Shown here: in pieces, positions 21,884-64,000 of the stretch
Layout of the letters: each line of letters begins with the position of its first letter
Numbering within the stretch: the stretch's first letter is position 1
Assembly (NCBI GenBank): GCA_026401035.1
Contig: JAPLNR010000051.1
Location: 15,114-79,113, forward strand
DNA from: Planctomycetia bacterium
Lineage (GTDB): Bacteria; Planctomycetota; Planctomycetia; Pirellulales; UBA1268
DNA: 64,000 bases
Direction: 5' to 3'
The notes under the pieces: generated by a model
Seen by the model: the letters and a program-made list of their open reading frames with translations, nothing else
Told to the model about the DNA's origin: nothing
Databases searched by the model: none
Made by a program: the position numbers and the translations under genes

Positions 21884-22232
21884 CGGAAATGTTCTGCGGC
21901 GTGGCCGCGGCCAGCCCCAGCAAAAACGACAGAACGTCGAGCAGTGCGAGCGTGAAGCTCAGGGGCCACTCTCGCAAGGGCGGATCCTCAAGTTGGGGGT
22001 GGCGTCAAGTCCACGGCCTGCTGACATCCCGGATGGATCAAGAAATGGTGAGGACGTCACCTGCTAGCGGCCCAGTTGAGCAAGCCGGCGCGGCCGAGCT
22101 CCATCTGTCGGCAGTTCTGTGGACGCTTCGCTTCATTTTCTCGGGAGACCGTGCGGCCTTCGATATCATGGTGGGTGTTCGGAGGTTCGGTCGGTCGCGC
22201 GAGCCGCAAGCATACCGCAGAGTTCCCCCCTC

Positions 22233-22907
22233 ATGAGCGTTCGTCAGTGGCCGACAGGAGCCTCGTTCCGCGTTGCTGCAGTTCTGGTCGTGCTGGCAGC
22301 GAGCCTTGCGGCGATCGCGAACGCGGCCGACCTGCTCGAGCGGGGACTGGATGAATGGGTCGTCGAGGGCGCCAGCGACTTCGAGGATCGCGGCCAGAAG
22401 GTGCCGGTCTGGACGATTGCCGACGGCGTCGTGCGGTGCAGTGGGCGTGGCTTCGGCTACCTGCGACATGACGACACCGTGTCCGACTTCCGGCTGGAAC
22501 TCGAGTATCGGTTCCCGAAGCATGGCAACAGCGGCATCGGCATTCGCACGGTGCCGTTCACCGGCCCGCTCGAGACGCGGCCGAGCCAGGCCGCCTACGA
22601 GATCCAGCTGCTTTCCGATGCGGGGTCGCCCCCGAACCGCGGCTCATGCTGCTCGCTCTACGGCCACGAGGCGCCCAAGGAAAACAGGTCGCGGTCCGTG
22701 GGCGAGTGGAACACGATCATCGTGGAGTGCCGGGGTCCGCGGATCCTCATCGCGCACAATGGCGCCGACGTGATCGACTTCGACCAGTCGACGCGGAAGG
22801 ACACCGCGACGAAGCCGCTCTCGGGCAGCATCTGCCTGCAAAACCACGGCAGCGTCGTCGAGTTTCGCAATCTCCGCCTCACGGGCCTTTCGCTACCCGG
22901 CAGGTAG
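22233..22907 (+). CDS. DUF1080 (3-keto-disaccharide hydrolase family) protein
   Basis: Trimmed to the ATG at 22233, with a signal-like segment AAVLVVLAASLAAIANA. Motifs GYLRHDDTVSDFRLELEYRF..GNSGIGIR and LQNHGSVVEFRNLRL. Confidence 0.8.
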   Translation: MSVRQWPTGASFRVAAVLVVLAASLAAIANAADLLERGLDEWVVEGASDFEDRGQKVPVWTIADGVVRCSGRGFGYLRHDDTVSDFRLELEYRFPKHGNSGIGIRTVPFTGPLETRPSQAAYEIQLLSDAGSPPNRGSCCSLYGHEAPKENRSRSVGEWNTIIVECRGPRILIAHNGADVIDFDQSTRKDTATKPLSGSICLQNHGSVVEFRNLRLTGLSLPGR

Positions 22908-45487: not shown

Positions 45488-45495
45488 GTGCCATC

Positions 45496-46941: not shown

Positions 46942-46952
46942 AAAAGGTGAAG

Positions 46953-49900: not shown

Positions 49901-50057
49901 CTCACGGCAGCCGAAGCCGACCGAGTTGGCGCGATTTACGAGCCTTCTGACCGCCCGCGAGCAGGCGGCCGGCAGCGATCAGAAAAAGCGCGACCTCGCG
50001 TTGGCCGATGTCTGCCACCTGATGTTCTGCCTCAACGAATTCGTCTACGTCGACTAG
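46953..50057 (+). CDS. PSCyt1 + PSCyt2 (DUF1549) + F5/8-type-C (discoidin)-like + PSD1 (DUF1553) protein
   Basis: Trimmed to the ATG at 46953, preceded by an AAGGTGA RBS. CYECHS, WVRNDVDRFILAKQEAAGI, CARCHDHKYDAISHRDYYAMIACL, AVDGNTNTGWSVDG, NRLWHHHFGRGI...APTHPELLEWLA. Confidence 0.9.
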   Translation: MSAMPCSARLANNCVRLLLGLVGGGIVAATPAWADLPPEQLAFFESKIRPVLLQHCYECHSAEALKGGRLKAELLLDSRAGMAKGGESGPAVVAGKKEESLLLAALKYDGYEMPPSGKLPDEVIGDFEKWIEMGAPDPRDEPLADAGPREIDVAAGRNHWSYRRLAAVSPPAVANMAWVRNDVDRFILAKQEAAGITPNAEAGKEKLLRRVTFGLTGLPPTPGERQLFMADTSPAAYEKLVDRLLASPRYGERWGRHWLDAVRFAESGGYEFDGDRPGAHHYRDFVIRAFNDDMPYDRFLQLQIAGDLIDPASYDAISATGFFVAGPYPGQITMKTAEPIRYDQLDDMVQALGSGVLGMTIGCARCHDHKYDAISHRDYYAMIACLGNTVHTTVALDPNPEATKLARAEWEAMRAPVVAVLDRFRTGEFPARLEKWLASDIAAQAPAPWLLLDPDTLTAARATLTADAEDVVVASGKLEPNDTYTLSFSTQQKQLTGLRLEAFASAAAPGGGPGVGQDGSFQLSELKVTADPLMPAAGRKQVKVKLQPGVATFEENGFELAKAVDGNTNTGWSVDGQLGKDHAATFAFENPVGFEGGTKIKVELTFQANQHGLARFRLAATSGMPAAMVDGSAVPQAAREIVSIVEAVRAAGKPLVDDAAVSREAMRWFRKFDTDTDRVLATLDAVDTRQPKPALLSIYGTGKGGSDVYLLKRGEVARKGDKAAAGFVRSTLAADAAEQELFVGTDNKPVAHPRLALAEYITNVNGGAGPLAARVIVNRLWHHHFGRGITATPNDLGTQGEAPTHPELLEWLAGRLVEGNWGLKQIHRLIVTSAVYRQAGTIPESHRVKDPDNLLLWHRRPIRLEGESIRDALLMAAGTLDTKMYGPGTLDVSSPRRSVYLTVKRSQPVPFLQVFDQPEPVLSVGSRGTATVPTQSLAMMNSPFVRTAAEGLAKRARDTIGIGSSPTGIAGDALIDYCFTVVLSRQPKPTELARFTSLLTAREQAAGSDQKKRDLALADVCHLMFCLNEFVYVD

Positions 50058-50077
50058 GACCCTGTTGGAGAAACGTC

Positions 50078-51523
50078 ATGCTCGGATCGAATCTCGGTGA
50101 GCTTCTCCTGCCGGCCCGGCGCCGGTTCCTGCGGGATGCGGGCCTCGGATTCGGCTCGCTCGCCCTGGCCTCGCTTCTCGGCGACGCAGGCCATGCCGCG
50201 ACGAGCGCCGGATCATCGCCGCTCACGCTGCCGCACCATGCGCCGAAGGCGAAGCGGGTGATCTGGCTCTTCATGACGGGCGCCCCGTCGCAGATCGACA
50301 CCTGGGACTACAAGCCCGAATTGCAGGCGCGGGCCGGCCAGCCGCTGCCCGACGCCGATAAGAAGCTGGGGTTTTTCGAGACCAGCGGCACGTGTCTTGC
50401 GAGCCCCTTCAAGTGGGCCCAGCACGGCTCCTCGGGCACCTGGGTGAGCGACCTTTTCCCACACCTCGCGCAGCACGTCGACGACATGTGCTTCATTCAC
50501 TCGATGCACCTGAAGGCCAACAACCACGCCCCGGCGGCGATGGAGCTGATGTGCGGCCTCAACCGCCCCGGCATGCCGAGCATGGGGGCCTGGCTTGATT
50601 ACGGACTGGGATCGGCGAACGAAAATCTGCCGGCCTTCGTCGTGATGCACGAGCGGAAGCCGCGAGGCGACGACCAGATCTGGTCGGCCGGCTTTCTGCC
50701 CAAGAGTCACCAGGCGTTGGCGATCGACGCCCGGCGCAAGGAGGCGATCGACAATCTCGCCCGCCGCGCGGGGCAGTCCGATGCCGCCCAACGGGCCGAA
50801 CTCGACCTGCTCCATGCGCTCAACGCCGAGCACGCGGCCGAGCGGCCCAGCCAGGCCGACCTCCAGGCCCGGCTCGCGAGCTTCGAATTGGCCTACCGCA
50901 TGCAGTCGGCGGCTCCTGAGGCGATCGATCTCACACAGGAGTCGAAGCTCACGCACGAGCTTTACGGCACGAGCGATCCGAAGTGCCAGGTCTTCGCGAA
51001 GCAGTGCCTGACGGCCCGCCGGCTGCTCGAGCGGGGCGTGCGGTTCATCCAGATCTTCGCCGGCAAGAACGCGGGCGGCGACGGTGCGGTCGACGACGTG
51101 CCTTGGGATGGCCACGTCAACATCGAAACCAACCACCGGTCCTGCGGCTTGTCCACCGACCGGCCGGCAGCCGCGCTCCTGGCCGATCTGAAGGCCCGCG
51201 GCATGCTCAACGACACGCTCGTCATCTGGGGTGGTGAGTTTGGCCGCACGAGTGACTCGCAGGGGAGCAAGGGCCGCGACCACAATCCGCAGGGCTTCAC
51301 GATCTGGATGGCCGGCGGCGGCGCGAAGCCGGGCTTCCATTACGGTGCAACCGATCCCTTCGGCTACAAGGCGATCGAAAACAAAGTGCACGTCAACGAC
51401 CTGCACGCGACCATGCTCCACCTGCTGGGCATCGACCATGAAAAGCTCACCTACCGCCACAACGGCCGCGCCTACCGGCTGACCGATGTCGGCGGCCGCG
51501 TGATCCACGACGTCATCGCGTAA
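50078..51523 (+). CDS. DUF1501 protein with a Tat signal (second copy)
   Basis: Trimmed to the ATG at 50078, preceded by a GGAG RBS. ARRRFLRDAG, WLFMTGAPSQIDTWDYKP, GRDHNPQGFTIWMAGGG. Confidence 0.9.
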   Translation: MLGSNLGELLLPARRRFLRDAGLGFGSLALASLLGDAGHAATSAGSSPLTLPHHAPKAKRVIWLFMTGAPSQIDTWDYKPELQARAGQPLPDADKKLGFFETSGTCLASPFKWAQHGSSGTWVSDLFPHLAQHVDDMCFIHSMHLKANNHAPAAMELMCGLNRPGMPSMGAWLDYGLGSANENLPAFVVMHERKPRGDDQIWSAGFLPKSHQALAIDARRKEAIDNLARRAGQSDAAQRAELDLLHALNAEHAAERPSQADLQARLASFELAYRMQSAAPEAIDLTQESKLTHELYGTSDPKCQVFAKQCLTARRLLERGVRFIQIFAGKNAGGDGAVDDVPWDGHVNIETNHRSCGLSTDRPAAALLADLKARGMLNDTLVIWGGEFGRTSDSQGSKGRDHNPQGFTIWMAGGGAKPGFHYGATDPFGYKAIENKVHVNDLHATMLHLLGIDHEKLTYRHNGRAYRLTDVGGRVIHDVIA

Positions 51524-51595
51524 CTGCCGGAATCCTCATTGTTCCGGAATGACAGAGACATCCCTCGGCTCTGGCCGAGGTGCCGGCGGACGCGG

Positions 51596-52855
51596 CTATC
51601 GGCTCACGGCGACCCCCGGCCGGGCCTGTGAAAACTTCTCCAGCCCGCCGTCCGACACCTCCGTGAAGTCTACGGCAAGCGACTCGAGTGCGGGCAGCAC
51701 GGCGAGCCGGTCGAGCGCCGCGTCGGTCACTTTCGTGCCGGTCAATGTGAGCACCTTCAGTTTCGGCAGAGCGGCGAGATGGGTGATCCCGGCGTCGGTC
51801 ACATTCGTGTTTTGCAGGCTGAGCTTCGCGAGCGACACGAGTCTGCCCACGAACGGCAGGCCGGCATCGGTGACCTTCGTGTCCCACAGGTCGAGTTCCG
51901 TGAGCTTCGCCAGCCCGGCGAGATGGGCCACGCCCGCGTCGCCGACGCCGGTCTCGGCCAGGTCGAGGAGCACGAGATTCGGCAGCCGGCCCACGTGCGC
52001 GAGGCCGGCATCACCCACGAGCGAGCCCCGCAGTTCGAGCCGCTTGAGCTTGGTGAGGCCGCCCAGATGAGCAAGCCCCTCGTCGCCGACGAACGTCCGC
52101 ATCACGTTGATCTCGTCGATGTCAGTTTTGGTCGCGAAGGGAGTGAGCCCCGCATCGGTAATCTGGCCGTCTTCGACGGCGAAGCCACGGAGCTTCGGCA
52201 GTGCGGCCAGGTGGGCCAGCCCCATGTCCGTCACGCTCGGGCAGCGGAGCTTCACCCGCTCCAGGCTGCGGAGCTTCGCCACGTGTTCCAGGCCCACGTC
52301 GGTCACGGCCGCGCAGCCGCGGAGGTCGAGCACCCGCAATTTCTCCAGCGGCACGAGATGGGCCAGGCCCGCGTCCGTAAAGTTGTTGTAGAGCAGCACG
52401 AGCTGCTCGAGCCCGGTCAGTCGCGCCACCGACTCGAGCGCCGCATCGCCGAGATTCGACGACCGCCGCAGATTGAGCACCCTGAGCTTCGTGAGCGCGG
52501 CGAGCTTTTCCGCTCCGGCGTCGGTCAGGTCGGTATTTTCGAGCACCAGTTGCTCGAGATTCTTCATGCGGCCGATCGCAGCGATGCCCCGGTCGGTGAT
52601 CTCGGCCCCCCAGACCTCGAGTTTGCTCAGATGCTCGAGGCCCGCGAGCACCTCGAGATCGGCGTCGGTAGCCGGCCGCTCGGCGAGATCGACTGCCACC
52701 ACGTGGCCGGCCGCGTCGACGTCGACCGTGCCGCCGCGGGCCTGCACGAGCCCCACGGCCGCCGTCTCGCGTGGCGTCGGCGTCACCGCCACGGCCGCTC
52801 CGGTGAGTACCAGCGTTGCGACCACCGCCCGAACCACATCCATCCACAGCTTCAT
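51596..52855 (-). CDS. Secreted leucine-rich-repeat (RNI-like) protein
   Basis: 419 aa with a signal peptide. About 14 consecutive 24-aa units of the form L..L..L..L.L....vTDaGla. Confidence 0.85.
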   Translation of the reverse strand: MKLWMDVVRAVVATLVLTGAAVAVTPTPRETAAVGLVQARGGTVDVDAAGHVVAVDLAERPATDADLEVLAGLEHLSKLEVWGAEITDRGIAAIGRMKNLEQLVLENTDLTDAGAEKLAALTKLRVLNLRRSSNLGDAALESVARLTGLEQLVLLYNNFTDAGLAHLVPLEKLRVLDLRGCAAVTDVGLEHVAKLRSLERVKLRCPSVTDMGLAHLAALPKLRGFAVEDGQITDAGLTPFATKTDIDEINVMRTFVGDEGLAHLGGLTKLKRLELRGSLVGDAGLAHVGRLPNLVLLDLAETGVGDAGVAHLAGLAKLTELDLWDTKVTDAGLPFVGRLVSLAKLSLQNTNVTDAGITHLAALPKLKVLTLTGTKVTDAALDRLAVLPALESLAVDFTEVSDGGLEKFSQARPGVAVSR

Positions 52856-52927
52856 TCGTCAGCTCCTCAAGGGGTCGATATGACCAGTGCGTTCAGGGAA
52901 AAACCGTTCACGATCGGTCGTTAGTCT

Positions 52928-54136
52928 TCAGGGCAGTTCCCGGATTCGCATGGTGCGATACGACACTGGCCTACCCTCGTCCTGAAATCCGATCAGGCCC
53001 TCCGGGGGGCGGTTCTTCACGGCCGAGGTCGCAAGGTCGAGGTCGATGATCGCCTCGCCGTTGAGCTCGACCTCCAGGTGCGGACCAACGCACGTGATCA
53101 CGTAGCGGTTCCACTCGCCGGCCGGCTTTACCATGTTCTTCGACGGCGCGGCGGTGTTGACGATGCCGCCGCAGTCGTGGTGGCCGACCGACTTCTTGCC
53201 GAACGTGTCGAGAATCTGCACCTCGAACCCCGAGTCGACATGGTTGTTCGGGTTGCCGACCCGGAGGAACACGCCCGAGTTGCCTCCTCTGGTGTACTGA
53301 AACTCGAGGTCGAGGATGAAGTTCTTGTAGGGCTTCGTGGTCGTGAGGTAATCGCCGTAGCGTCGCCAGCCCGATTCGCCCGGCCGCGGCTTGAGCGTCA
53401 CTCCGGAGGGCCCCTCGGGGATCCAGTTGCCCGTGGTCTGCCAGCCGGTGAGATCCTTCCCGTTGAGCAGCGGCACGAAGCCCTCGTCGCCAGGAATCTC
53501 CAGGATCTCGAGGTTCCGGAAATGCACCTCCATGTCTTGGCCGCCGTGGAGCTGTAGGGCGATCGGCCCCTCGCGGCGACCGCCGTCGTTGACGAGCTCG
53601 ACGGTCTGGCTGCCGTTGAGGAGCACCGTCACATCGGGGCCGATCGCGCGGATGACCATCGAGTTCCAGTCGCCCCGTTTGGCAATGGCCTCGGTCTTCG
53701 CATGGTCGGGCCGTTGGACCCAGCCGCGGCCCCCGGTTTCGTAGAGCCCGCCGACATCCGGTGAGTTGTCGACCTCTGCCTGGAGGCCGCCAACGCCCGC
53801 GGTGCTTCCCCGCTCCTCGCAGCGGAAGTACAGGCCGCTGTTGCCGCGGACGACCTTGAATTCCGCCCGCAGAATGAAGTTCTTGTATTTGCGATCCGTG
53901 ACGAGCAGGCCGTGCTTGGGCTCCGAGGCCGGGCTCGTGCCCACGATCGCCCCGTCTCTCACCTCCCAGGTGCCGCCCGGGAGCGTGTGCCAGCCGGCGA
54001 TGTCGTGTCCGTTGAAAAGTGGTACGAAGGCCGGCTCCGTCGGTTCGCCGGCCTGAAGGCCAGCGGTGTGGAGTAGGGCGCACAGAACGAGATAACCCGC
54101 GAGGAAAAAGGCGGGCATCGGGGACGGGAAACGCAT
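52928..54136 (-). CDS. Secreted protein with two tandem DUF1080 (3-keto-disaccharide hydrolase family) domains
   Basis: FVPLFNGHDIAGWH...YKNFILRAEFKVVRGNSGLYFR...LQLHGGQDMEVHFRNLEI, then FVPLLNGKDLTGWQ...YKNFILDLEFQYTRGGNSGVFLR...YRTMRIREL. Start at 54136 or 54118. Confidence 0.8.
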   Translation of the reverse strand: MRFPSPMPAFFLAGYLVLCALLHTAGLQAGEPTEPAFVPLFNGHDIAGWHTLPGGTWEVRDGAIVGTSPASEPKHGLLVTDRKYKNFILRAEFKVVRGNSGLYFRCEERGSTAGVGGLQAEVDNSPDVGGLYETGGRGWVQRPDHAKTEAIAKRGDWNSMVIRAIGPDVTVLLNGSQTVELVNDGGRREGPIALQLHGGQDMEVHFRNLEILEIPGDEGFVPLLNGKDLTGWQTTGNWIPEGPSGVTLKPRPGESGWRRYGDYLTTTKPYKNFILDLEFQYTRGGNSGVFLRVGNPNNHVDSGFEVQILDTFGKKSVGHHDCGGIVNTAAPSKNMVKPAGEWNRYVITCVGPHLEVELNGEAIIDLDLATSAVKNRPPEGLIGFQDEGRPVSYRTMRIRELP

Positions 54137-54342
54137 GGGGCGGGTCCGGAGGACGGAAGAGGATGAATGGTACCTTGATGCAATCACGGCTCATCGGAGC
54201 ATGATGCCCGACGCCTGGCTGGTTGTCGATGTGTCTCTTGTCGTCATTCCTGCCGACGGGCTCACCAGTTTTGCCGACATGAATCAGCGGGTCGGCATGT
54301 AATCCTTGAGGATGCATTTCTTCACTGCCAGAGAGAAACACC

Positions 54343-55773
54343 ATGAGTCGTGCTGCCTGGTCCCGCCGCAGGTTCCTCCACACCGCCACAGTGCTCGGCG
54401 GCGGCGCGGCCTTCTCTTCGCGGCCCCTGCGGGCGCGGGCGGCATCGCCAAACGACCGGCTCTCGATCGCATGCATCGGCATGGGCGGCCACATGCGTGG
54501 CTATCTCCTGCCGGAGCTCGCCAAGATCGACCAGCAGATCGTCGCCATCTGCGACGTCGACCAGAGGCAGTTGGACACAGCGCTCGCGACCGATCAGCTC
54601 CGTGATGCAAAACCCTATCGCGACTATCGGGACCTTCTCGACAAAGAAAAAGACGTCGACGCGGTGGTCGTGGCGACACCGGACCATTGGCACGTGCCGG
54701 TCAGCCGGGCGGTGCTCGAAAGCGGCCGGCACGTCTACTGCGAGAAACCGCTCGCCCATTCGGTGGCGGAATCCCGCCTGATCGTTGACCTCGCCCGGCG
54801 CCATCCGAATCTCGCCACCCAGACGGGCAACCAGGGCTGCTCCACCGAGGGCTTCAGGCGCAGCGTCGAGGTGATCCGGTCGGGGCTGCTCGGCCCCGTG
54901 AGCGAGGTGCATGTCTGGCATCCGCCGCACGGGTGGCCGAACGCAGTCGACCGGCCGGCGGGGAGTGATCCCGTTCCGGAAGGTTTCGACTGGGAGTTCT
55001 GGCTCGGCGGGGCACCGGCGCGGCCATTCAAGGAGGGGCTCTACCATCCCGGACGCTGGCGGGGCTGGTATGACTTCGGCGGCGGATCGCTCGCTGATTT
55101 CTGCTGTCATGGTTTTCAGTTGGCGTATCGGGCGCTCGATCTCGATGCACCGACACGGATCGAGGCGACGGGAGACGGTCTCGGGCACGAGACATTTCCA
55201 AAGCGGTGCACGATCTCGTTCGATTTCGCGGCCAAGGGCGGTCGCGGGCCGGTGCGGCTTTTCTTCTACACCGGCGAAAAGAACCTGCCGCCGGAAAGCG
55301 TCACGAAGGGACCGGTGAGCGGAACGGGCTGCCTGATCGTGGGCAGCGAGGGGACGCTCTCGGCGGGGCTGTGGAATACCGACTGCAACGTCCGGCTTGC
55401 GGACGCGAAGGGATTCCAGGGGGCCAACCAGCCGGACGTCGCGAAAATCCCGAAGAGTGAGCCGCGGATCGATACGGCGGGCCTGCAGTGGGATCCGAAA
55501 AAGGCGGCCCAGGGCGAACGGCCGCGATGGAGCCGGGTCAACAATTCGCATATGTTCGAATGGGTGCGGGCGTGCGCGGGAGAGGGGAAGACCTACTCCC
55601 CGTTCGAGATCGGCGGCCGCATCACGGAGGTGGGGATGCTGGGCATCCTCGCCCTGCGGATGCAGAAGCCGATCACGTGGGACGCTGCGAACCGCCGGGC
55701 CGTCGGAATGCCCGAGGCGGATGCGATCATCGATCCCAAGCCCGCGACCGACAAATATTTTCGGCACACTTGA
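54343..55773 (+). CDS. Gfo/Idh/MocA-family oxidoreductase with a Tat signal
   Basis: 476 aa. SRRRFLHTATVLGGGAAF, Rossmann motif IACIGMGGH, ATPDHWH, VYCEKPL. Confidence 0.85.
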   Translation: MSRAAWSRRRFLHTATVLGGGAAFSSRPLRARAASPNDRLSIACIGMGGHMRGYLLPELAKIDQQIVAICDVDQRQLDTALATDQLRDAKPYRDYRDLLDKEKDVDAVVVATPDHWHVPVSRAVLESGRHVYCEKPLAHSVAESRLIVDLARRHPNLATQTGNQGCSTEGFRRSVEVIRSGLLGPVSEVHVWHPPHGWPNAVDRPAGSDPVPEGFDWEFWLGGAPARPFKEGLYHPGRWRGWYDFGGGSLADFCCHGFQLAYRALDLDAPTRIEATGDGLGHETFPKRCTISFDFAAKGGRGPVRLFFYTGEKNLPPESVTKGPVSGTGCLIVGSEGTLSAGLWNTDCNVRLADAKGFQGANQPDVAKIPKSEPRIDTAGLQWDPKKAAQGERPRWSRVNNSHMFEWVRACAGEGKTYSPFEIGGRITEVGMLGILALRMQKPITWDAANRRAVGMPEADAIIDPKPATDKYFRHT

Positions 55774-55795
55774 ATCACGGAAGGAAAAGTCGTTC

Positions 55796-58700
55796 ATGGG
55801 ATCGTGCTCCACAATGTGTCTGGCGGGAAGATGTCTGGCCGGAAGAATTCTGGTTGGCCTGTTCGTGGCCCACGTTCTGACTGCGGCAGGGCGGCTCCAG
55901 GCGCAGACGGCTCCACAGCTGCCGCCGGCTGTCGTGCAGAAGCAGCCCAACCCGGGTCCGAATGGCGAGCGGCCGTGGGAAGAGATTCCCGAGACCGAAG
56001 TCGAGAAGATCCGGGCGGCCCTGCCCGAGAAGGCCGAGACCTCGCCGAAGCAGCCCCGCAAACTGCTCGTCTTCTACCGGGCCGACGGCTATCCCCATGC
56101 GTCGATCCCGCATTGGAACAAGCTCATCCAACTGCTCGGCGAGAAGACCGGCGCCTACGAGGCCACGTTCTCGCAGAACTACGCCGATCTCATGCCGGGG
56201 AAGATCGAGCAGTACGATGCGCTCTTCTTCAACAACACCTGTCGGATGGTTACGCCCCCCGAGGTGAAGACGGCGATCCAGGCCTTTGTGAAAGGGGGCA
56301 AGGGGTTCGCAGGCAACCATGGCGCCGGCGACAACTGGCACGACTGGGCCGAGGGGCTGGAAATGGTCGGTGCCGAGTTCGCACGGCACCCGTTCGGCAG
56401 CATCGTGCTGAAGGTCGACGATCCCGCAAGCCCGCTCACGGCGATGTTCGGCGGCCAGTCGTTTCCGTACTCCGACGAGATCTACACGTTCCGCAGCCCC
56501 TATGCCCGTGACAAGCTGCGGGTGTTGTTGAGCATCGACTACGACAAGTCGCCCGACGTCGTGAAGGGCGAGCAGCGAGCCCGCGAGCGGGGCGGCCAAG
56601 ACGCGGGGTCGATGCGGGCCGATCACGACTATGCGCTGGCCTGGGTGCGGCCGTGGCAGAAGGGCCGTGTTTTCTACTGCGCCCTTGGTCACCGGGCCGA
56701 GGTGACCTTCGACCCCCGCATGGCGCGATTCTTTTTGGCCGGCATCCAATACGCGCTTGGCGATCTTGCGGCCGACGACACGCCGGTGGGCGGAAAACCA
56801 TCGCCGGCCGAGCCGCCAAAGCAGCCCGAGATCTTCGGCGACCTCACCTTCGCCGACGGGCTCGACGTGCAGCCGTTCGCGGCCCCGCCGATGATCGTGG
56901 CCCCGGTCTTCGTCTCCGCGAACGCCGACGGCGTGCTCTACGTCTCGAGCGACCCGAATGGCTCGGTCGGCAACGAACGAGGCAAGGGCCGCATCCTGCG
57001 GGTCGTCGACAACGATGACGATGGCCGCGCCGACACGGTCACAGACTTCGTGACGAAGATCGACTCACCCCGTGGCATCGTCGCCGAAGGGGACACGGTC
57101 TATGTCCTCCATCCGCCACACATCAGCCGGTTCACCGACACCAACGGCGACGGCGTGGCCGACCAGAGCCAGGTGATCGCGAAGAACATCGGCTGGGATC
57201 TCTCCGCCCGCAAAGCCGACCACGGCTCCAACGGCCTCTCCCTCGGCATCGACGGATGGATTTACGCGGCGATCGGCGATTTCGGATTCACGAAGGCCGA
57301 GGGCACCGACGGCCGCACGGCCCAGCTCCGCGGCGGCGGCGTCATTCGCGTCCGTCGCGACGGCACGGGGCTCGAGGTTTATGCCCGGGGCACACGGAAC
57401 ATCCTCGAAGTGACGATGAGCCCGCTGCTCGACGGGTTTGCCCGTGACAACACCAACGACGGCGGCGGCTGGAACGTGCGGTTCCATCACATCACCGGCC
57501 TCGAGGACCACGGCTACCCGTCGGTCTTCAGGAACTTTGCCGACGAGGTGGTCGCCCCGATCGTCGACTACGGCGGCGGGTCGGGCTGCGGTGGCGCGTG
57601 GATGGGCGAGCCGGGCTGGCCCGGCCAGTGGAGCAACCAGCCGATCGAGGCCGACTGGGGCCGGCAGATCGTCTACGGCCACGCCCTTTCGCCGAAGGGG
57701 GCCACGTTCGAAGAGAAAAAACCGCCGGCCGAGTTCTGCGCGCTGAAGAAAGAGGTCACCCGCGGAAACGCCTTCCGGCCGACCGACGTCGACGTCGACG
57801 CGCAGGGACGGATGTTCCTCGTGAGCTGGCGCGACGGCGGCTTCAATGCGGGTTCGACCACGGGGTTCATCTTCCGCATCGCGCCGTATGCCCAGGTGCC
57901 GTGGCTCTTCCCCGACCGGTCGACGGTGAAGCCGGTCGACCTCGCGAAGCTGATGGCGTCTCGTGGCCATCGTGGGCGACAGGAAGCCCAGCGTCTGTTG
58001 GTCACCCGCGGCCTCGACGCTGAGGCCCGCACCGTGCTCGGCGACATCGCCCGGGGAAAATCCATCACTCCAGGCAATGAAAAAGACCTGCCGCCGCTCG
58101 AATGCCGCGTGGCCGCGATCTTCACGCTCGCGCAGGCTGATGGCGAGCAGGCCTGGCCCCTGCTCGTCGAGCTTGCCGCCGATCCGGCCGTGGCCGCCTG
58201 GGCAATCCGGGCGCTCGTCGACGATGAGCGGATCGCGGCGAAGGCCCCGATCGACCCGATCAAGGCGGGCCTCGTCTCGCCCGACGCCCGCGTGCGCCGG
58301 GAGGCGGCGGTGGCAGTCGCCCGAATCGGTAAGCCGGAGGTGGCACCGCTCGTCGCGCCGCTCCTCGGCGACGCCGATCCGCTGGTCGCCCACACTGCCC
58401 GGCAGGCGCTCGTGCGGCTGCGGGCGATCGAACCGTGTCTGGCCGTCTTCGACGATTCGGCGGCGCCGCCCAATCGGGTGGCGATGGCCGTGCAGGCGAT
58501 CGAGCGGCTGTATGAGAAACCGGTTACCGACGGACTGATCGAGCGGCTCGCGAAAACGGCCGATCCTGCTCTCCGTCGCCCGCTGCTCGCCGCGCTCTGC
58601 CGGCTCTATCACCGCGAGGGCGAGTGGAAGGGGGACGGCTGGGGCACGGTGCCCGACACCCGCGGTCCGTACTACCAGCCCGAGACGTGGAGCGAGTCGC

Positions 58701-59938
58701 CGCGGATTGCCGAGGCGATCGTGTCGGCGATCGACAAGGGGGCCGCCGACGAGGCCGTCTGGCTCGGCGCCGAACTGGCGAAGAATCGCGTGTCGATTCC
58801 CGCCGCCATGAACCGGCTCATCGCGCTTGCCGAGTCGGAGCCGAAGGTGGTGCCGCCGCTCGTCAAGCAGCTCTCCCAGGCCGACGAACTCCCTGAGGCG
58901 GCGGTGCCGCTTCTGATCCGCGTGACGGCCGATAAGGCGCTCGACCACGACACCCGCAACTTCGCGATCACGGCCCTTTGCAAAGTGGATAGCGCCGCTG
59001 CGGTCACGGCGGTTCTGCAGGGGTTCACGATCTCGGCGGGGGGCAATGAATACTGGCGGGGCCGCAATGCGTTCCGCGGCTATTCGTTTCTGACGAAGCA
59101 CCATCAGCTTCTCATCGACGCGGCCGCCCGCGATGACGGCACGTCGCGGATCGCCGAGGAAGCACTCTTTAAGATCGCCGCCAACGTGCTCGCTCCGCCG
59201 GCCGTACGGGACGATGTCGTCCGGGCGATCCAAGCCGGTTGGAACCAGGGGCCGAAGCGGCAGCGGCAGATCGTCGATGTGGCACGCGAGACGCGGTATG
59301 CCGAGCCAGCGCTCGCCCGGCTGATCGCCCGAATCGTGAAATCCGATGACGAAGCGTTGGCGAAGGCTGCCCAGGAGTATTTCAAGTCGCTGAACCTCGA
59401 CCCGGAGAAGGTGCTCACGGCGAAGGACGAGCCGCCGGCGAAGCTCGTGGGTGCCATGCCGGTCGACGAGGCGATCGCAGCCGCCGTGGCCCTGAAGGGG
59501 GACCGCGGCCGCGGCGACCAGCTCTTCAACCAACTGGCCTGCGTGGCCTGCCACACGACGAAGGCCGATCTCCCGCCGAAGGGCCCGTATCTCGGCAACA
59601 CCGCGGCGATCTACAAGCGGGCGGAGCTGGCGGCCGCGGTGCTCGAACCGTCGAAGACGATCGCCCAGGGATTCACGACGAACGTGATCCTGCTCGATGA
59701 CGGCCGCGTGCTCACGGGGTTCGTCACCCGGGAGGCGGCCGACACGGTATCGCTGCGGCTGGCCGATGCGACGGAGGTGACGATCCGGAAGGACTCGATC
59801 GATGAGCGCAACAAGCTCGAAGGCGTGTCGGTGATGCCGGCAGGGCTCGTGGCCAACATCACCCCCGAAGACTTCGCGTCGCTGCTCACCTACGTGCAGT
59901 CGCTCGTGCCTGCATCAGCCCACGGACAGGGGCAGTGA
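55796..59938 (+). CDS. Fusion protein: ThuA-like domain + putative membrane-bound dehydrogenase beta-propeller + HEAT repeats + cytochrome c domain
   Basis: Trimmed to the ATG at 55796 (GGAAGGA RBS), 1380 aa. ThuA-like KLLVFYRADGYPHASIP...KGFAGNHGAGD...RVFYCALGH. The paralogous remainder resembles the 14422-17472 protein. C-terminal heme site CVACH. Confidence 0.85.
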   Translation: MGSCSTMCLAGRCLAGRILVGLFVAHVLTAAGRLQAQTAPQLPPAVVQKQPNPGPNGERPWEEIPETEVEKIRAALPEKAETSPKQPRKLLVFYRADGYPHASIPHWNKLIQLLGEKTGAYEATFSQNYADLMPGKIEQYDALFFNNTCRMVTPPEVKTAIQAFVKGGKGFAGNHGAGDNWHDWAEGLEMVGAEFARHPFGSIVLKVDDPASPLTAMFGGQSFPYSDEIYTFRSPYARDKLRVLLSIDYDKSPDVVKGEQRARERGGQDAGSMRADHDYALAWVRPWQKGRVFYCALGHRAEVTFDPRMARFFLAGIQYALGDLAADDTPVGGKPSPAEPPKQPEIFGDLTFADGLDVQPFAAPPMIVAPVFVSANADGVLYVSSDPNGSVGNERGKGRILRVVDNDDDGRADTVTDFVTKIDSPRGIVAEGDTVYVLHPPHISRFTDTNGDGVADQSQVIAKNIGWDLSARKADHGSNGLSLGIDGWIYAAIGDFGFTKAEGTDGRTAQLRGGGVIRVRRDGTGLEVYARGTRNILEVTMSPLLDGFARDNTNDGGGWNVRFHHITGLEDHGYPSVFRNFADEVVAPIVDYGGGSGCGGAWMGEPGWPGQWSNQPIEADWGRQIVYGHALSPKGATFEEKKPPAEFCALKKEVTRGNAFRPTDVDVDAQGRMFLVSWRDGGFNAGSTTGFIFRIAPYAQVPWLFPDRSTVKPVDLAKLMASRGHRGRQEAQRLLVTRGLDAEARTVLGDIARGKSITPGNEKDLPPLECRVAAIFTLAQADGEQAWPLLVELAADPAVAAWAIRALVDDERIAAKAPIDPIKAGLVSPDARVRREAAVAVARIGKPEVAPLVAPLLGDADPLVAHTARQALVRLRAIEPCLAVFDDSAAPPNRVAMAVQAIERLYEKPVTDGLIERLAKTADPALRRPLLAALCRLYHREGEWKGDGWGTVPDTRGPYYQPETWSESPRIAEAIVSAIDKGAADEAVWLGAELAKNRVSIPAAMNRLIALAESEPKVVPPLVKQLSQADELPEAAVPLLIRVTADKALDHDTRNFAITALCKVDSAAAVTAVLQGFTISAGGNEYWRGRNAFRGYSFLTKHHQLLIDAAARDDGTSRIAEEALFKIAANVLAPPAVRDDVVRAIQAGWNQGPKRQRQIVDVARETRYAEPALARLIARIVKSDDEALAKAAQEYFKSLNLDPEKVLTAKDEPPAKLVGAMPVDEAIAAAVALKGDRGRGDQLFNQLACVACHTTKADLPPKGPYLGNTAAIYKRAELAAAVLEPSKTIAQGFTTNVILLDDGRVLTGFVTREAADTVSLRLADATEVTIRKDSIDERNKLEGVSVMPAGLVANITPEDFASLLTYVQSLVPASAHGQGQ

Positions 59939-61392
59939 TGACCGGCCGCCGGATGCTTGTGTTTCACCGGGTCGCGACGTTCATGCTCGTGGCACTGGCC
60001 GCGCTGCCGGCGGCGGTGCAGGGCGAGGTGGTCGTGTCGCCTCTCTTCTCCGATTGCGTCATGCTGCAGCGGGGTCAGCCGATCCGCGTGTGGGGCCGGG
60101 CCGAGCCGGGTGAGGACGTGCGGGTGTCGCTCGGCGAGGCGAACGGTTCGGTGGCAGCCGACGCGGGAGGCGAGTGGATCATCGAACTGCCGGCCCGGGA
60201 CGCGGGCGAAAACCTCGAACTCGTCGTGGAAGGCCGCAACCGCATCGTCGTGAAGGACGTCATCCTCGGCGATATCTGGCTGTGCGCGGGCCAATCGAAC
60301 ATGGCGTGGCCGCTGCATGCCTGCGCGGCCAAGGACGACATCAAGGTGGCAGACTTCCCCCGGATCCGTCGGATCAAGATCGCGAACGAAGCGTCCACCG
60401 GGCCGAGGGACGAGCCGCCCGTCAAAACCCCCTGGCAACGCTGCCACCCCGACACGGTGGGAGCCTTCACGGGCGTGGGCTTCTATTTCGCCCGCGAGGT
60501 GCAGGGCAAGACAGGCGTGCCGATCGGGCTGCTCGACAACAACTGGAATGGCACCCGGATCGAGCGCTGGATCGCCGGCGAGGGCGTTCGTGGCGTGCCG
60601 GAGTTGGCGAAGGAATATGCCGCCCGGAAGGGCGGCTGGAGCGACATCCACCATGCGATGATCCACCCGCTGCAGCGGTTTCCGATCAAGGGCGTGCTCT
60701 GGTACCAGGGGGAATCGAATGGGAACGAGGGAGACAGCTACTTCCACAAACTGCGAGCGCTCATCGGCGGATGGCGGCAGCAATGGGGCCGTGACGACCT
60801 GCCCTTTTATATCGTGCAGCTCTCCAACGGCGGTGCGCCGAATGAGGATCCTGCCGGAGGGGCTGGCTGCATGCGGCTTCGCGAGGCCCAGGCGCGAGCC
60901 TTGACGATTCCTCGGACGGGCCTGGCCGTCGCGATCGACACCGTGCCGCTCAAGGAGGCCCAGGCCAATCTCCACTCGACGAACAAGCTCGATGTGGGCG
61001 TGCGCCTGGCCCAATGGGCGCTCCATCACGACTATGGCATGGCCGGCCTCGAGCCGTCTGGCCCGCTTTTTCAGTCGATGCAGGTGGAGGGGGAGCGGAT
61101 CAGGCTTTCGTTCGCGCACGTCGGCCCCGGCCTGATGCTCGGCAGAAAATTGGGACGGGAGCCGGTTATCGAGGACAAGGCGGGCCCACTCCGGCGGTTT
61201 GCGATCGCAGGCGCCGACAAGAAATGGGTCTGGGCCGAGGCCACGATCGACGCCGACACTGTCGTCGTGTCGTCGCCAGACGTGCCGGCACCGGTCGCCG
61301 TCCGCTACGCCTACTCGAGCAACCCGGACGGCGCAAATCTCTACAATCGTGCCGGACTGCCGGCGGCGCCGTTTCGTACTGATTCATGGTGA
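59938..61392 (+). CDS. Sialate O-acetylesterase-like (SASA/DUF303 family) carbohydrate esterase
   Basis: The ATG at 59938 shares its A with the upstream TGA. DIWLCAGQSNMAWPL (GQSNM catalytic Ser motif), GVLWYQGESN, LPFYIVQL. Confidence 0.8.
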   Translation: MTGRRMLVFHRVATFMLVALAALPAAVQGEVVVSPLFSDCVMLQRGQPIRVWGRAEPGEDVRVSLGEANGSVAADAGGEWIIELPARDAGENLELVVEGRNRIVVKDVILGDIWLCAGQSNMAWPLHACAAKDDIKVADFPRIRRIKIANEASTGPRDEPPVKTPWQRCHPDTVGAFTGVGFYFAREVQGKTGVPIGLLDNNWNGTRIERWIAGEGVRGVPELAKEYAARKGGWSDIHHAMIHPLQRFPIKGVLWYQGESNGNEGDSYFHKLRALIGGWRQQWGRDDLPFYIVQLSNGGAPNEDPAGGAGCMRLREAQARALTIPRTGLAVAIDTVPLKEAQANLHSTNKLDVGVRLAQWALHHDYGMAGLEPSGPLFQSMQVEGERIRLSFAHVGPGLMLGRKLGREPVIEDKAGPLRRFAIAGADKKWVWAEATIDADTVVVSSPDVPAPVAVRYAYSSNPDGANLYNRAGLPAAPFRTDSW

Positions 61393-61435
61393 TCGACAAC
61401 AGGTTTTCCAGAGGATTTCTCCCAGGAGGTATTCG

Positions 61436-62845
61436 ATGACCCGTCCCCGTGTTTCCCGGCCCGTGTCTGCAGCAGCGCTCCCCCGCCGCGGTTTTCTCGC
61501 GGCCACGTCGGCCGTTTCAGCAGGCTACTGGATCGCGCCTGAAACAAAAGCCGCCGACGGCACGTCGTCGAGCGCCAATGAGGAAATCCGGTTCGCCTGC
61601 ATTGGCATCGGCGGCAAGGGCGCGAGTGACGCGGGCGAGGCCGCCCGCCATGGCAAGATCGTGGCGGTGGCCGACGTCGACGCCAACCAGCTGAAGCGGG
61701 CCACGACGGCCTACGAGGGGGCGAAGCAGTATGCTGACTTTCGCCGCATGCTCGATGAGATGGGCAAGGAGTTCGACGCCGTCACGGTCAGCACGCCCGA
61801 TCATCTGCACATCACCGCCGCCGGAATGGCGCTGGGGAAGGGCAAGCACTGTTTCTGCCAGAAGCCGCTCACCCGCACGCTCGGCGAGGCGCGGCTGCTT
61901 GGCGAGTTAGCGCGGTCGCAGAAGGTGGCCACGCAGATGGGCAACCAAGGCACGTCCTCGGGCGGCGTCCGCAAACTCGCCGCGTTCATCAAGGGGGGCG
62001 GGCTCGGTACGGTGAAGGAGGTGCATATCTGGACCAACCGGCCCGTCTGGCCCCAGGGGGGCGGCAGGCCTGCTGAAAAACCGGTGCCGGAGAACCTGAG
62101 CTGGGATCTCTGGCTGGGACCGGCTCCCGTGCGGCCTTTCGGTCCTGGCTACCATCCGTTCGCGTGGCGCGGGTTTTGGGATTTCGGCTCGGGTGCGCTT
62201 GGCGACATGGCCTGCCATACGATGAACATGCCCTTCATGGCGCTCGATCTGCGGAATCCGGCGACCGTGCAAGCGACGACGAGCGGTCACACGAAGGAAA
62301 CGTTTCCCAAGTGGTCGGTCATCGACTACACGTTTCCGGCGCTCGGCAGCCGTCCGGCACTCACGATGAAGTGGTACGACGGAGGCAAGTTACCCGATCT
62401 CGGGATGTTTGCAGGCTTGCCCGGCGAGGTGCGGAAGGACAAGGAGGGTAAAGAGGAACAGCTGCCGTTTCAGCTGGCCAACCGCGGGGTGCTCGTGATC
62501 GGCGACAAGGAAAAGCTTTACGCATCGGGCGACGCCTGCGACAGCGGCGGCATGCTCACCACCGGCCGCGTGCCCGATAACGTGAAGTTCGAGCGGTCGC
62601 CGGGCCACTTCGCGGAATTGGTGCGGGCGATCCGCGGCGGTCCGCAGGCCGTGAGCAACTTTCCCGACTACGCGGGGCCGCTGACGGAGACCGGGCTCGT
62701 TGGAAACCTTGCGATCTGGCTGGCCGCGACGGCCGACGAGCCGGGCAAAAAGCTCGACTGGGATCCGGTCGCGCTCGTGGCCAGAAACGCGTCCGAGCTC
62801 GAGCCGCTGATCCGGCCGACCTACCGAGACGGCTGGAAGATCTGA
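61436..62845 (+). CDS. Gfo/Idh/MocA-family oxidoreductase with a Tat signal (second copy)
   Basis: Trimmed to the ATG at 61436 (AGGAGG RBS). LPRRGFLAATSAVSAGY, FACIGIGGKG, STPDHLH, HCFCQKPL. Confidence 0.85.
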   Translation: MTRPRVSRPVSAAALPRRGFLAATSAVSAGYWIAPETKAADGTSSSANEEIRFACIGIGGKGASDAGEAARHGKIVAVADVDANQLKRATTAYEGAKQYADFRRMLDEMGKEFDAVTVSTPDHLHITAAGMALGKGKHCFCQKPLTRTLGEARLLGELARSQKVATQMGNQGTSSGGVRKLAAFIKGGGLGTVKEVHIWTNRPVWPQGGGRPAEKPVPENLSWDLWLGPAPVRPFGPGYHPFAWRGFWDFGSGALGDMACHTMNMPFMALDLRNPATVQATTSGHTKETFPKWSVIDYTFPALGSRPALTMKWYDGGKLPDLGMFAGLPGEVRKDKEGKEEQLPFQLANRGVLVIGDKEKLYASGDACDSGGMLTTGRVPDNVKFERSPGHFAELVRAIRGGPQAVSNFPDYAGPLTETGLVGNLAIWLAATADEPGKKLDWDPVALVARNASELEPLIRPTYRDGWKI

Positions 62846-62903
62846 TTCACAGTCCGTCTCTTTCAAAGGCGGTCTGATCCCAAGAGCACTCGAGGAGCGT
62901 GGT

Positions 62904-64000
62904 ATGCGCGGCGGACAGGCAGGATTCCTTGCGGCGATGGCAGGGCTGGCGGTGGTCTGCCTCGGCGTCCCTGCGGCGAACGGGGCGGAGCCCCGGCACG
63001 ACGTCGTCATCTACGGTGCGACGTCCGGCGGGGTCATCGCCGCGATCCAGGCGAAAGCGATGGGTCGAACCGTGATGATCGTCGAGCCGGGCCGGCATGT
63101 CGGCGGGCTTTCCTCGGGTGGACTGGGCGCCACAGACATTGGCAACAAGGCCGCGATCGGCGGGCTCTCGAGGGAGTTCTACCGGCGGATCGGCCGCCAC
63201 TACTCCGAGGCCTCGGCCTGGAAGCATGAGGGCTACCGCGGCCCTCGAAAGGGATCGACCGACCCGGAGATGTGGACGTTCGAACCGCACGTCGCAGAGC
63301 AGGTTTTCCGTGCATGGCTGGCCGAGGTGGGGGTGGAAGTGGCCTTCGATGGCCGGCTCGACCTCGGTGCCGGGGGCGTCGAAAAGGATGGCCGTCGGAT
63401 CGTCGCCTTCACGACGGAAGACGGCCGCCGGTTCGGCGGTGCGATGTTCATCGATGCGACGTACGAGGGGGATTTGATGGCCAAGGCGGGTGTCTCGTAT
63501 CACGTCGGCCGCGAGGCCCAGAGCGTCTACGGCGAGTCGCTCAACGGGATTCGGACGAAGCAAGCCCGCCATCACCAGTTCACACACCAGGTCGATCCGT
63601 TCGTCGTGCCCGGGGATCGAGCGAGTGGCTTGCTCCCACTCGTCTCTTCCGAGCCGCCGGGCAAGGATGGCGACGGCGACCGCCGGGTGCAGGCCTACAA
63701 CTTCCGGATGTGCACGACCGACGTGCCTGCCAACCGTCGCGACTGGCCCAAACCGGAAGGCTACGACGAAAAGGAGTACGAACTGCTCCTACGCAACTTC
63801 GAGGCGGGCGACCACCGTGTTCCCTGGAATCCTGTCCGGATGCCCAACCGCAAGACCGACACCAACAACAACTACGCCATCAGCACCGACTCTATCGGCG
63901 CAAATTATGACTACCCGGAGGCGGACCACCGGCAGCGGGAACAGATCATCGCCGCCCACCGTCGGTACCAAATGGGGTTGATGTGGACGCTCGCCAATCA
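62904..64000 (+). CDS. FAD-dependent oxidoreductase (planctomycete/verrucomicrobial FAD_oxidored-type), 3' end outside the window
   Basis: Not in the supplied ORF track because it has no stop in the window. The ATG at 62904 follows a GAGGAG RBS, and the frame is open to nt 64000. Signal peptide, then HDVVIYGATSGGVIAAIQAKAMGRTVMIVEPGRHVGGLSSGGLGATDIGNK (dinucleotide-binding motif). Confidence 0.75.
   Translation, partial: MRGGQAGFLAAMAGLAVVCLGVPAANGAEPRHDVVIYGATSGGVIAAIQAKAMGRTVMIVEPGRHVGGLSSGGLGATDIGNKAAIGGLSREFYRRIGRHYSEASAWKHEGYRGPRKGSTDPEMWTFEPHVAEQVFRAWLAEVGVEVAFDGRLDLGAGGVEKDGRRIVAFTTEDGRRFGGAMFIDATYEGDLMAKAGVSYHVGREAQSVYGESLNGIRTKQARHHQFTHQVDPFVVPGDRASGLLPLVSSEPPGKDGDGDRRVQAYNFRMCTTDVPANRRDWPKPEGYDEKEYELLLRNFEAGDHRVPWNPVRMPNRKTDTNNNYAISTDSIGANYDYPEADHRQREQIIAAHRRYQMGLMWTLAN

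Follow-up and report, generated by a model that had tools for sequence, protein, structure and literature searches.

Where do the electrons go when exported enzymes begin the breakdown of a glycoside by oxidising it? The question is raised by a locus at the downstream end of a 64,000-nucleotide stretch of DNA, called here the window, from a Planctomycetia bacterium of the order Pirellulales (assembly GCA_026401035.1, contig JAPLNR010000051.1, positions 15,114 to 79,113 of the forward strand). The source contig is found in freshwater and lake metagenomes, and its malate dehydrogenase shares 89-91% identity with counterparts in metagenome-assembled genomes of freshwater Pirellulales. Five genes on the plus strand, termed g2 to g6, lie divergent from a sixth, g1. 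Genes g2 (54343-55773) and g5 (61436-62845) encode Gfo/Idh/MocA family proteins (hereafter Gfo) with the twin-arginine motifs SRRRFL and RRGFL, respectively. Between them, g3 (55796-59938) encodes a 1380-amino-acid fusion of a signal peptide, a ThuA domain, a DUF7133/TIGR02604 propeller, HEAT repeats and a TIGR02603 cytochrome c domain, and g4 (59935-61392) encodes a secreted SASA-type (SGNH) carbohydrate O-acetylesterase with a GQSN motif. The last gene, g6 (62904 to beyond 64000), is cut by the window end and encodes a flavin adenine dinucleotide (FAD) oxidoreductase of family PF12831 with a signal peptide. On the minus strand, g1 (52928-54136) encodes a secreted protein with two DUF1080 (PF06439) domains. 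A preliminary description had assigned these six genes and their domains and had described a divergent double DUF1080 gene beside an operon of Shine-Dalgarno-linked or overlapping genes; open reading frames, Pfam and NCBIfam bear out all of this.

A recent route for glycoside cleavage by oxidation, elimination and hydration, worked out in gut Bacteroidota, begins with a Gfo protein that is exported by twin-arginine translocation (Tat) and oxidises C3 with tightly bound nicotinamide adenine dinucleotide (NAD); cleavage and hydration follow, by a TIM-barrel lyase and a DUF1080 lyase/hydratase (PMC8121099; bioRxiv 10.1101/2024.03.25.586180). What re-oxidises the bound NADH in vivo was not settled by the authors, who named cytochromes as a possibility (bioRxiv 10.1101/2024.03.25.586180). 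We propose, with a probability of roughly 45%, that g2 to g5, joined by g6 in this lineage, form an operon for exported, esterase-assisted glycoside cleavage that is initiated by oxidation to 3-keto sugars and has g3 as its electron outlet.

The proposal starts from the two Gfo proteins. Both match the NCBIfam model NF058561 (BT_2158_fam, glycoside 3-dehydrogenase) over their full length, with g2 residues 7-461 and g5 residues 17-455 aligned to model positions 1-437 of 487, and both match PF01408 and PF19051 (a Rossmann domain and a C2-type C-terminal domain). Their best solved relatives by far are the AL3-type 3-dehydrogenases 8tdf and 8tdh (E 1e-64 to 1e-76). The 8tdf match has E 8e-64 for g2 and 3e-76 for g5, while the next-best Gfo structures lie at about 1e-15; for g2, AL3 is thus ahead of every other solved relative by 50 orders of magnitude. 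Identity to AL3 is 41.5% for g5 and 35.7% for g2. The AL3 active-site residues Q161, R192, W195, D248 and H252 are retained in g5 (five of six), with Y349 in a poorly aligned region. Four of the six (Q161, W195, D248 and H252) are retained in g2, in which Y349 is not conserved and R192 is replaced (WHPPHGW). In AL3, R192 holds sugar O5/O6 (Nasseri et al., bioRxiv 10.1101/2024.03.25.586180). The substrate of g2 therefore probably differs, and its pocket is probably a variant of that in AL3. On these matches, g2 and g5 are members of the glycoside 3-dehydrogenase clade and not generic Gfo proteins, which gives real support to the 3-keto chemistry that the preliminary description had assigned to them.

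Membership of g2 and g5 in GH109 was considered and rejected, since none of the 47 solved relatives of g2 (E 1e-5 or better) carries a GH109 name. The twin-arginine motifs each precede a mildly hydrophobic stretch, and R-R-x-F is invariant in seven homologues. Both proteins are thus predicted to be exported by the Tat pathway, the signal-peptide type being judged by motif inspection.

The domains of g3, all encoded on the plus strand, follow one another closely. ThuA occupies residues 89-320 (56060-56755; PF06283, 122 bits against 33.4, profile positions 1-209 of 209), and the sGDH-like, six-bladed DUF7133/TIGR02604 propeller occupies residues 350-697 (56843-57886). A HEAT/helical region follows (about 57896-59485), in which Pfam matches HEAT at residues 791-872. 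The TIGR02603 cytochrome c domain spans residues 1235-1369 (59498-59902) and holds a single CxxCH motif, CVACH, at residues 1249-1253 (59540-59554). The protein passes both models of the family termed PVC-haem after the PVC bacteria (Planctomycetota and Verrucomicrobiota), with 132.5 bits against 122.2 for TIGR02604 and 82.3 against 68.15 for TIGR02603. The CxxCH motif and a downstream Met-Pro are invariant in 11 homologues. For the cytochrome domain, the match is 7zs0, a dihaem cytochrome c of Kuenenia that has a high potential (+350 mV).

What feeds this haem is suggested by the propeller. A Foldseek search with its AlphaFold model (predicted local distance difference test score, pLDDT, 75) placed enzymes that use pyrroloquinoline quinone (PQQ) on top, namely soluble glucose dehydrogenase (sGDH), fungal AA12 pyranose dehydrogenase and aldose sugar dehydrogenase (Asd), with E 1e-9. 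A profile of the whole domain was swamped by NHL-repeat designer proteins and only the central segment gave a clean result, matching 3das and 1c9u (sGDH) at E 0.005. In the profile alignment, the family-invariant histidine of the ADH motif corresponds to sGDH His144 (KDH), GTRN corresponds to GHRN, and HGYP to NYGWP; Pfam gave no PF07995 (GSDH) match in g3. The propeller is thus likely a divergent PQQ-type sugar dehydrogenase domain with a conserved catalytic histidine. If so, the cytochrome has a plausible electron donor within its own protein and need not serve the Gfo enzymes; it may instead serve g3's own catalysis. The preliminary description had suggested the fused haem as a possible outlet for periplasmic sugar oxidation. 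A haem-bearing domain agrees with the invariant motif, but service to Gfo is weakened by this plausible in-house donor.

The most conserved stretch of the PVC-haem family lies in the same domain, at about residues 533-597 of g3 (window about 57392-57586; RDNTNDGGGW...FHH...HGYP...DYGGGSGCG), and may be a loop that binds a cofactor or a metal, or else a contact between domains. A second protein of the PVC-haem type is encoded at 14398-17472 (plus strand). It has 1024 amino acids and no ThuA; its cytochrome c is accompanied by a DUF7133 propeller that shares 29% identity with the one in g3 and retains the invariant D-H.

The spacing of the genes is that of an operon. The gap between g2 and g3 is 22 nucleotides and contains GGAAGGA. 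The g4 start lies over the g3 stop in a 4-nucleotide overlap (GTGA). The gaps from g4 to g5 (43 nucleotides) and from g5 to g6 (58 nucleotides) contain AGGAGG and GAGGAG. Shine-Dalgarno sequences are present, no spacing exceeds 58 nucleotides, and a terminator scan found no terminator-like site in the g2-g6 gaps. Terminator and promoter scans as a whole did not rise above shuffled controls; their sole intergenic hit is a weak promoter-like site for g1.

The start of the unit is marked by a non-coding element of about 58 nucleotides (54251-54308, plus strand) within the 206-bp spacer between g1 and g2. It contains TGCCGAC twice and an inverted GTCGGCA, and an Rfam scan of 51400-64000 gave no match. 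In the relative that shares g2 to g5 (L008, where the g3 orthologue is 88% identical), the element is almost invariant, while the flanking DNA is unrelated and the upstream genes differ. Colinearity at the DNA level begins at 54261, and the element with g2, g3, g4 and g5 is colinear at 82% DNA identity. On this comparison, the conserved element marks the operon start at g2, and it is likely a promoter or operator, possibly an unusual promoter. In the same relative, a single co-directional DUF1080 gene takes the place of g1 and the leucine-rich repeat (LRR) gene that follows it here, and a GDSL lipase gene takes the place of g6.

The association of these families extends well beyond this operon. 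Neighbourhoods were taken from species-representative genomes (10 kb to either side) around 80 homologues of g3 and 80 of g5. A single-sequence scan with g3 returned only one hit, at 28% identity, so g3 homologues were collected with an alignment instead. A Tat-Gfo gene of the BT2158 type lies directly upstream of the PVC-haem gene on the same strand at four of the 80 g3-centred loci, and DUF1080 is nearby in about seven. Around g5 homologues, DUF1080 occurs at 16 of the 80 loci and ThuA at eight, and a propeller-cytochrome gene adjoins Gfo at three. All eight ThuA occurrences are preceded by a Tat-Gfo gene and followed by HEAT, either adjacent or fused.

A larger recurrent cluster is found at eight Planctomycetota loci (Sedimentisphaerales, Pirellulales and Phycisphaerae). 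It combines a homologue of the TIM-barrel lyase, Tat-Gfo then ThuA then HEAT, two to four Tat-Gfo genes of the BT2158 type, and DUF1080 genes. The HEAT part may be fused, as ThuA-HEAT or ThuA-HEAT-DUF1080, and the order of Gfo, ThuA and HEAT is that of g2 followed by g3. Five of the eight (L105, L108, L115, L135 and L140), from Sedimentisphaerales and Pirellulales, carry at the end of the Gfo/DUF1080/ThuA/HEAT/TIM-barrel cluster a tight triad of Tat-Gfo, multihaem cytochrome c and cytochrome b561 (for example, L108 17013-21234). The Gfo of the triad is of the PF02894 type, the cytochrome c has about 635 amino acids and six or seven CxxCH motifs, and b561 (Ni_hydr_CYTB) is present in four of the five. 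The triad looks like a membrane-anchored periplasmic sugar dehydrogenase complex. A tblastn search of the window gave no multihaem cytochrome c, cytochrome b561 or stand-alone HEAT protein.

Fusions join the same families in other combinations. PVC-haem proteins are seen fused with ThuA, DUF1080, discoidin and GDSL domains, and ThuA is N-terminal in about 30% of the sampled members. A SASA-DUF1080 fusion occurs at L057 (7576-9735, minus strand), a locus that holds a second SASA gene, a further DUF1080 gene and a distant Gfo gene. A GDSL-like esterase-DUF7133-HEAT protein is encoded directly upstream of a BT2158-like Gfo gene at L141 (6114-9779, plus strand), and a ThuA-HEAT-DUF1080 fusion at L140 (5580-9692, plus strand). 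Fusions of Gfo with cytochrome or ThuA were absent among the 120 closest g5 homologues. Gene context makes it plain that the Gfo, ThuA, DUF1080 and esterase families of PVC bacteria share a process, of which c-type cytochromes would form a part in several lineages. The association among the four families that the preliminary description drew from this one locus therefore recurs across PVC genomes, both as neighbours and as fusions.

The remaining enzymes fit a carbohydrate substrate. The esterase g4 scores 80 bits against 24.8 with PF03629 (E 2.3e-22), shows CAGQSNM in its translation, and has 9h4u, 9ega and 7kmm as solved relatives (E 1e-93 to 1e-83). The g1 protein has two full-length DUF1080 domains (PF06439, 281 bits against a cut-off of 26.8, E 6.7e-84) and a signal peptide that appears by motif inspection to be of the Sec type; of two possible starts, ATG at 54136 and GTG at 54187, the ATG is the more likely. 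Motifs NSG, E-x-Q/D and Q-x-H/E are visible in both domains, with E-V-D in domain 1. In BT2157, the channel residues are E103, N134, E164, Q166, Y190, K245, Q273 and H275. The g1 protein is a candidate 3-keto-glycoside lyase/hydratase.

These parts can be assembled into a scheme in which g4 would first strip O-acetyl groups that would otherwise block sugar hydroxyls. The exported g5 and g2, with tightly bound NAD(P) and different sugar pockets, would then oxidise the C3 hydroxyl of the terminal sugar, and a DUF1080 protein (g1 or a paralogue) would carry out 1,2-elimination and hydration. Electrons would leave through g3, from its putative PQQ-type propeller, which resembles sGDH and aldose sugar dehydrogenase, to its own c-type haem and on to the respiratory chain. 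The coupling would most likely be indirect: g3 would oxidise released or keto-acceptor sugars, and the Gfo enzymes would recycle NAD(H) on keto-sugars, as has been demonstrated in vitro for AL3 and BT2158 (bioRxiv 10.1101/2024.03.25.586180). Direct re-oxidation of Gfo-bound NADH via ThuA and HEAT is less likely. What the sequences show directly is the order of the genes, their domains, the homology to solved 3-dehydrogenases, the retained catalytic residues, the haem motif and the recurring neighbourhoods and fusions. We infer the export route, the substrates, each catalytic step, the identity of the cofactor and the flow of electrons, and gene context suggests that the operon could be linked to respiration.

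Several observations weigh against this scheme. The first group concerns synteny. At the locus whose g3 is closest (L007, 93%), only g3 and g4 are shared with the window. There, GH26 and epimerase genes stand in place of the absent g2, and of g5 only fragments (15639-16217) remain that are 92-94% identical to g5 residues 209-261 and 327-461; on this comparison, the operon is decaying in that lineage. Relatives whose g3 is 83%, 77%, 55% or 54% identical have g3 only, with neither a Gfo nor a SASA gene. Genes g1 and g6 lie outside the block that is colinear with L008. The synteny check proposed for the six genes thus found no conserved set beyond one relative at 88%, and there only g2 to g5. By these comparisons, the six-gene set is not a conserved unit, g2 to g5 make up an operon that is young and labile, and the flanking g1 and g6 are specific to the lineage. 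More broadly, a Gfo neighbour is lacking for about 90% of PVC-haem genes.

The second group concerns the proteins. A tblastn search of the 64 kb with three PVC TIM-barrel proteins found no homologue of the TIM-barrel lyase. NF058561 scores are 280 bits for g2 and 365 for g5 against an equivalog cut-off of 750, which makes the two proteins, on this model, relatives inside the BT2158/AL3 clade and not equivalogs. The best solved relative of g1 is 4jqt, a double DUF1080 protein (E 1e-27), with the BT2157-type 8tda at only 2e-07; g1 is thus nearer to uncharacterised Bacteroides structures (4jqt and 3s5q) than to BT2157. In our own motif mapping, made without the BT2157 sequence, domain 2 has QDE where the family has Q-x-H. 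The likeness of the g3 propeller to PQQ enzymes is remote (template modelling score 0.45-0.58; profile E 0.005), and confidence in the propeller model falls very low (pLDDT about 30) at one place only, the loop at residues 533-597. Finally, metatranscriptome contigs from the same lake samples gave mostly chance matches of about 20 nucleotides. The one exact match, 164 nucleotides at 62923-63086 in the 5' end of g6, comes from a 228-nucleotide contig (run X22) and may reflect DNA carry-over. No piece spans any g2-g6 junction, and the contigs do not bear on co-transcription.

A rival that takes up the preliminary description's idea is direct transfer, in which the g3 cytochrome would accept electrons from NAD(P)H bound to the Gfo enzymes, with ThuA and HEAT docking Gfo in the way that ThuA pairs with ThuB. 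Oxidation of glycosides at C3 would then be respiratory in itself. Gene g2 lies only 22 nucleotides upstream of g3, the order Tat-Gfo, ThuA, HEAT is kept in all eight ThuA-containing clusters, and the triad at five loci places multihaem cytochrome c and b561 beside a Tat-Gfo gene. The AL/BT study itself suggests that cytochromes might do the re-oxidation in vivo, and ThuAB and LacABC have been described as cytochrome c-dependent. However, NADH donates hydride, so that something would have to convert a two-electron step into one-electron steps, and neither ThuA nor HEAT shows such a converter. The cytochrome would already have a donor within g3, the propeller, and AL3 and BT2158 recycle NAD on keto-sugars with no protein partner. 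Moreover, PVC-haem proteins with an upstream Gfo gene elsewhere lack ThuA, and those that bear ThuA mostly lack a Gfo neighbour. We consider direct transfer unlikely.

Somewhat less doubtful is a general form of the proposal, in which the periplasmic, NAD-bound Gfo 3-dehydrogenases of PVC bacteria would not be redox-neutral like those of Bacteroides but would be wired to respiration via c-type cytochromes, either directly or by a shuttle of keto-sugars. We hold with the same hesitation that the wire would be the g3 fusion here and the triad of Tat-Gfo, multihaem cytochrome c and cytochrome b561 elsewhere. If such wiring is true, breakage of the glycosidic bond would itself yield respiratory electrons, and the question of NADH re-oxidation would be answered. 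If the genes are mere neighbours, the gain is one of annotation: g2 and g5 would be enzymes of the 3-dehydrogenase clade, and g3 a likely dehydrogenase of the quinohaemoprotein type. In either case, the locus offers a functional handle on three very large PVC families that have no established function (PVC-haem, DUF1080 and the Tat-Gfo paralogues).

It is also quite unlikely that the locus is only a loose glycan-degradation island, in which abundant paralogues in shuffled carbohydrate loci each act alone, with no common pathway or electron flow. Such an island would suit the gene content around g3 orthologues, which shifts at every divergence step, and the housekeeping contexts of the closest g5 homologues. 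The window itself is locally rich in PVC-haem and DUF1080 families: DUF7133-cytochrome c genes, DUF1080 genes and pairs of PSCyt and DUF1501 genes each occur twice in its 64 kb. A related planctomycete has about 20 TIGR02604, 17 DUF1080 and 33 PF01408 genes in a genome of about 9 Mb or more. By random placement, a PVC-haem gene would be unlikely to have two Gfo genes and one DUF1080 gene within 11 kb, and the tight operon spacing, with its 4-nucleotide overlap, speaks against an island, as do the recurrence of the same families as domain fusions in distant lineages, the repeated order of Gfo, ThuA and HEAT, and a Gfo-LRR partnership kept in the window at the neighbourhood level.

A hydrolytic, redox-neutral function, with g3 as a 'TIGR02604 beta-galactosidase' and the Gfo proteins as self-contained NAD-dependent glycosidases in the style of GH109 or GH4, is very unlikely: Lac161_ORF7 (AGW45552; TIGR02604-HEAT-cytochrome c), whose reported beta-galactosidase is the only activity for the PVC-haem family (PMC5342196), was said to release glucose from lactose (Michaelis constant 1.8 mM), and TIGR02604, DUF1080 and PF01408 appear in papers on planctomycete genomes as families of putative glycoside hydrolases, but the protein was made in E. 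coli BL21 and three unrelated proteins gave LacZ-like constants, so that we suspect host contamination and find the activity doubtful, the g3 propeller aligns with dehydrogenases and with no glycoside hydrolase family, no solved GH109 structure matches g2 with E 1e-5 or better (AL3 reaches 1e-64), and AL3 and BT2158 alone only oxidise.

Comparison with known systems places the proposed operon for oxidation-initiated cleavage between several of them. As in BT2156-BT2160 of Bacteroides thetaiotaomicron and AL1-AL5 of Alistipes, the window has Gfo proteins of the 3-dehydrogenase clade with Tat signals, DUF1080 beside them and exported proteins. Compared with BT2156-BT2160, it lacks the TIM-barrel lyase, a cytoplasmic second Gfo (BT2159 type) and a SusR-type regulator, and it has two predicted periplasmic dehydrogenases with different pockets. 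Its DUF1080 protein is a double-domain, distant paralogue encoded on the opposite strand, and the locus adds a SASA esterase, an FAD oxidoreductase and the ThuA-propeller-HEAT-cytochrome c protein. The full set of 3-dehydrogenase, TIM-barrel lyase and DUF1080 is not in the window but is present in other Planctomycetota loci.

ThuAB of rhizobia and Agrobacterium form 3-ketotrehalose and are separate proteins in a transporter operon. The window shares with them a ThuA-family domain that adjoins a Gfo/Idh/MocA protein (ThuB-like) and, as proposed, 3-keto-sugar chemistry. In the window, however, ThuA is the N-terminal domain of a secreted 1380-amino-acid fusion, and the Gfo protein is predicted to be Tat-exported and belongs to the BT2158 clade. 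LacABC of Caulobacter and Agrobacterium likewise ties periplasmic C3 oxidation of glycosides to a c-type cytochrome and has DUF1080 nearby, as is predicted for the window. Its catalytic subunit is a GMC flavoprotein, whereas the window would use a Gfo enzyme with bound NAD, and g6 belongs to PF12831 and not to GMC. The glucose-fructose oxidoreductase (GFOR) of Zymomonas mobilis resembles g2 and g5 as a Tat-exported member of the Gfo family with a non-dissociable nicotinamide cofactor, features that are inferred for g2 and g5. It works by periplasmic ping-pong between two sugars; however, it is a distant paralogue (E about 1e-11), and its chemistry is C1 oxidation with fructose reduction.

For g3, the propeller-HEAT-cytochrome c core and the single CxxCH are those of PVC-haem proteins including Lac161_ORF7. 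Unlike these, g3 has an N-terminal ThuA domain and sits in an operon with genes of the 3-dehydrogenase type. The six-bladed propeller is shared with sGDH (1c9u), Asd (3das) and AA12 (6jt5), with aligned catalytic His, GxRN and GYP motifs, and fungal AA12 pyranose dehydrogenase (6jt5) also fuses a dehydrogenase propeller to a cytochrome domain. In g3, by contrast, the cytochrome is of the c type and C-terminal, with about 500 residues of HEAT/helical repeats between it and the propeller, and the PQQ cofactor is putative.

Literature searches brought up no paper that treats what ThuA does, PF12831, or a connection between Gfo proteins and cytochromes in PVC bacteria. Neither the chemistry nor the dehydrogenase clade is new; the PVC sets that add esterases, ThuA/HEAT, LRR and cytochromes were not found in searchable papers. 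The locus and the related PVC clusters, which put the 3-dehydrogenase clade beside c-type cytochromes, ThuA/HEAT and esterases, make a coupling of glycan breakdown to respiration testable.

Among the flanks, the DUF1080 gene found 5' of g3 in four close relatives was considered as support for g1 and rejected, since its product is only 28-32% identical to g1. It is instead the orthologue (74-83%) of the single-domain DUF1080 gene at 22080-22907 of the window and travels with PSCyt/DUF1501 genes; the window lineage has therefore rearranged. In the window, that gene follows a LamG and BNR (sialidase-like) gene in a unit at 20003-22907 (plus strand). Directly upstream of the locus, at 42278-51523 (plus strand), are two consecutive PSCyt1-PSCyt2-PSD1 and DUF1501 pairs that are colinear with those of the relatives, where the DUF1080 gene comes about 30 nucleotides after them.

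A gene for a secreted LRR protein of 419 amino acids (51596-52855, minus strand), matched by several Pfam LRR families, lies 72 nucleotides downstream of g1, outside the span of the preliminary description. The protein is 67-77% identical to an LRR protein of about 431 amino acids that is encoded directly after the closest g5-type Gfo gene in three other Pirellulales lineages. This conservation ties the minus-strand unit of g1 and the LRR gene to Gfo genes, at the level of the neighbourhood. Housekeeping genes surround the closest g5 homologues that lie outside the operon, which are 65-71% identical (L250-L256, for example L250 8001-10723).

The g6 protein matches PF12831 with E 1.6e-59. A homologue at L077 (18068-20227) is 51% identical, combines FAD_oxidored with a C-terminal Golvesin_C domain, and sits among seven sulfatase genes, a PVC-haem gene, DUF1501 and DUF1080. 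This context hints at a role on sulfated glycans.

Other carbohydrate genes lie farther upstream in the window. A putative glycoside hydrolase of the GxGYxYP type (11610-14111, minus strand) adjoins the second PVC-haem gene. A bacterial microcompartment locus at 1886-10823 (minus strand) resembles the planctomycete fucose/rhamnose type, with genes for a class II aldolase, aldehyde dehydrogenase, EutN, acetate kinase, two BMC-H shell proteins, a DeoR regulator and a malate/lactate dehydrogenase.

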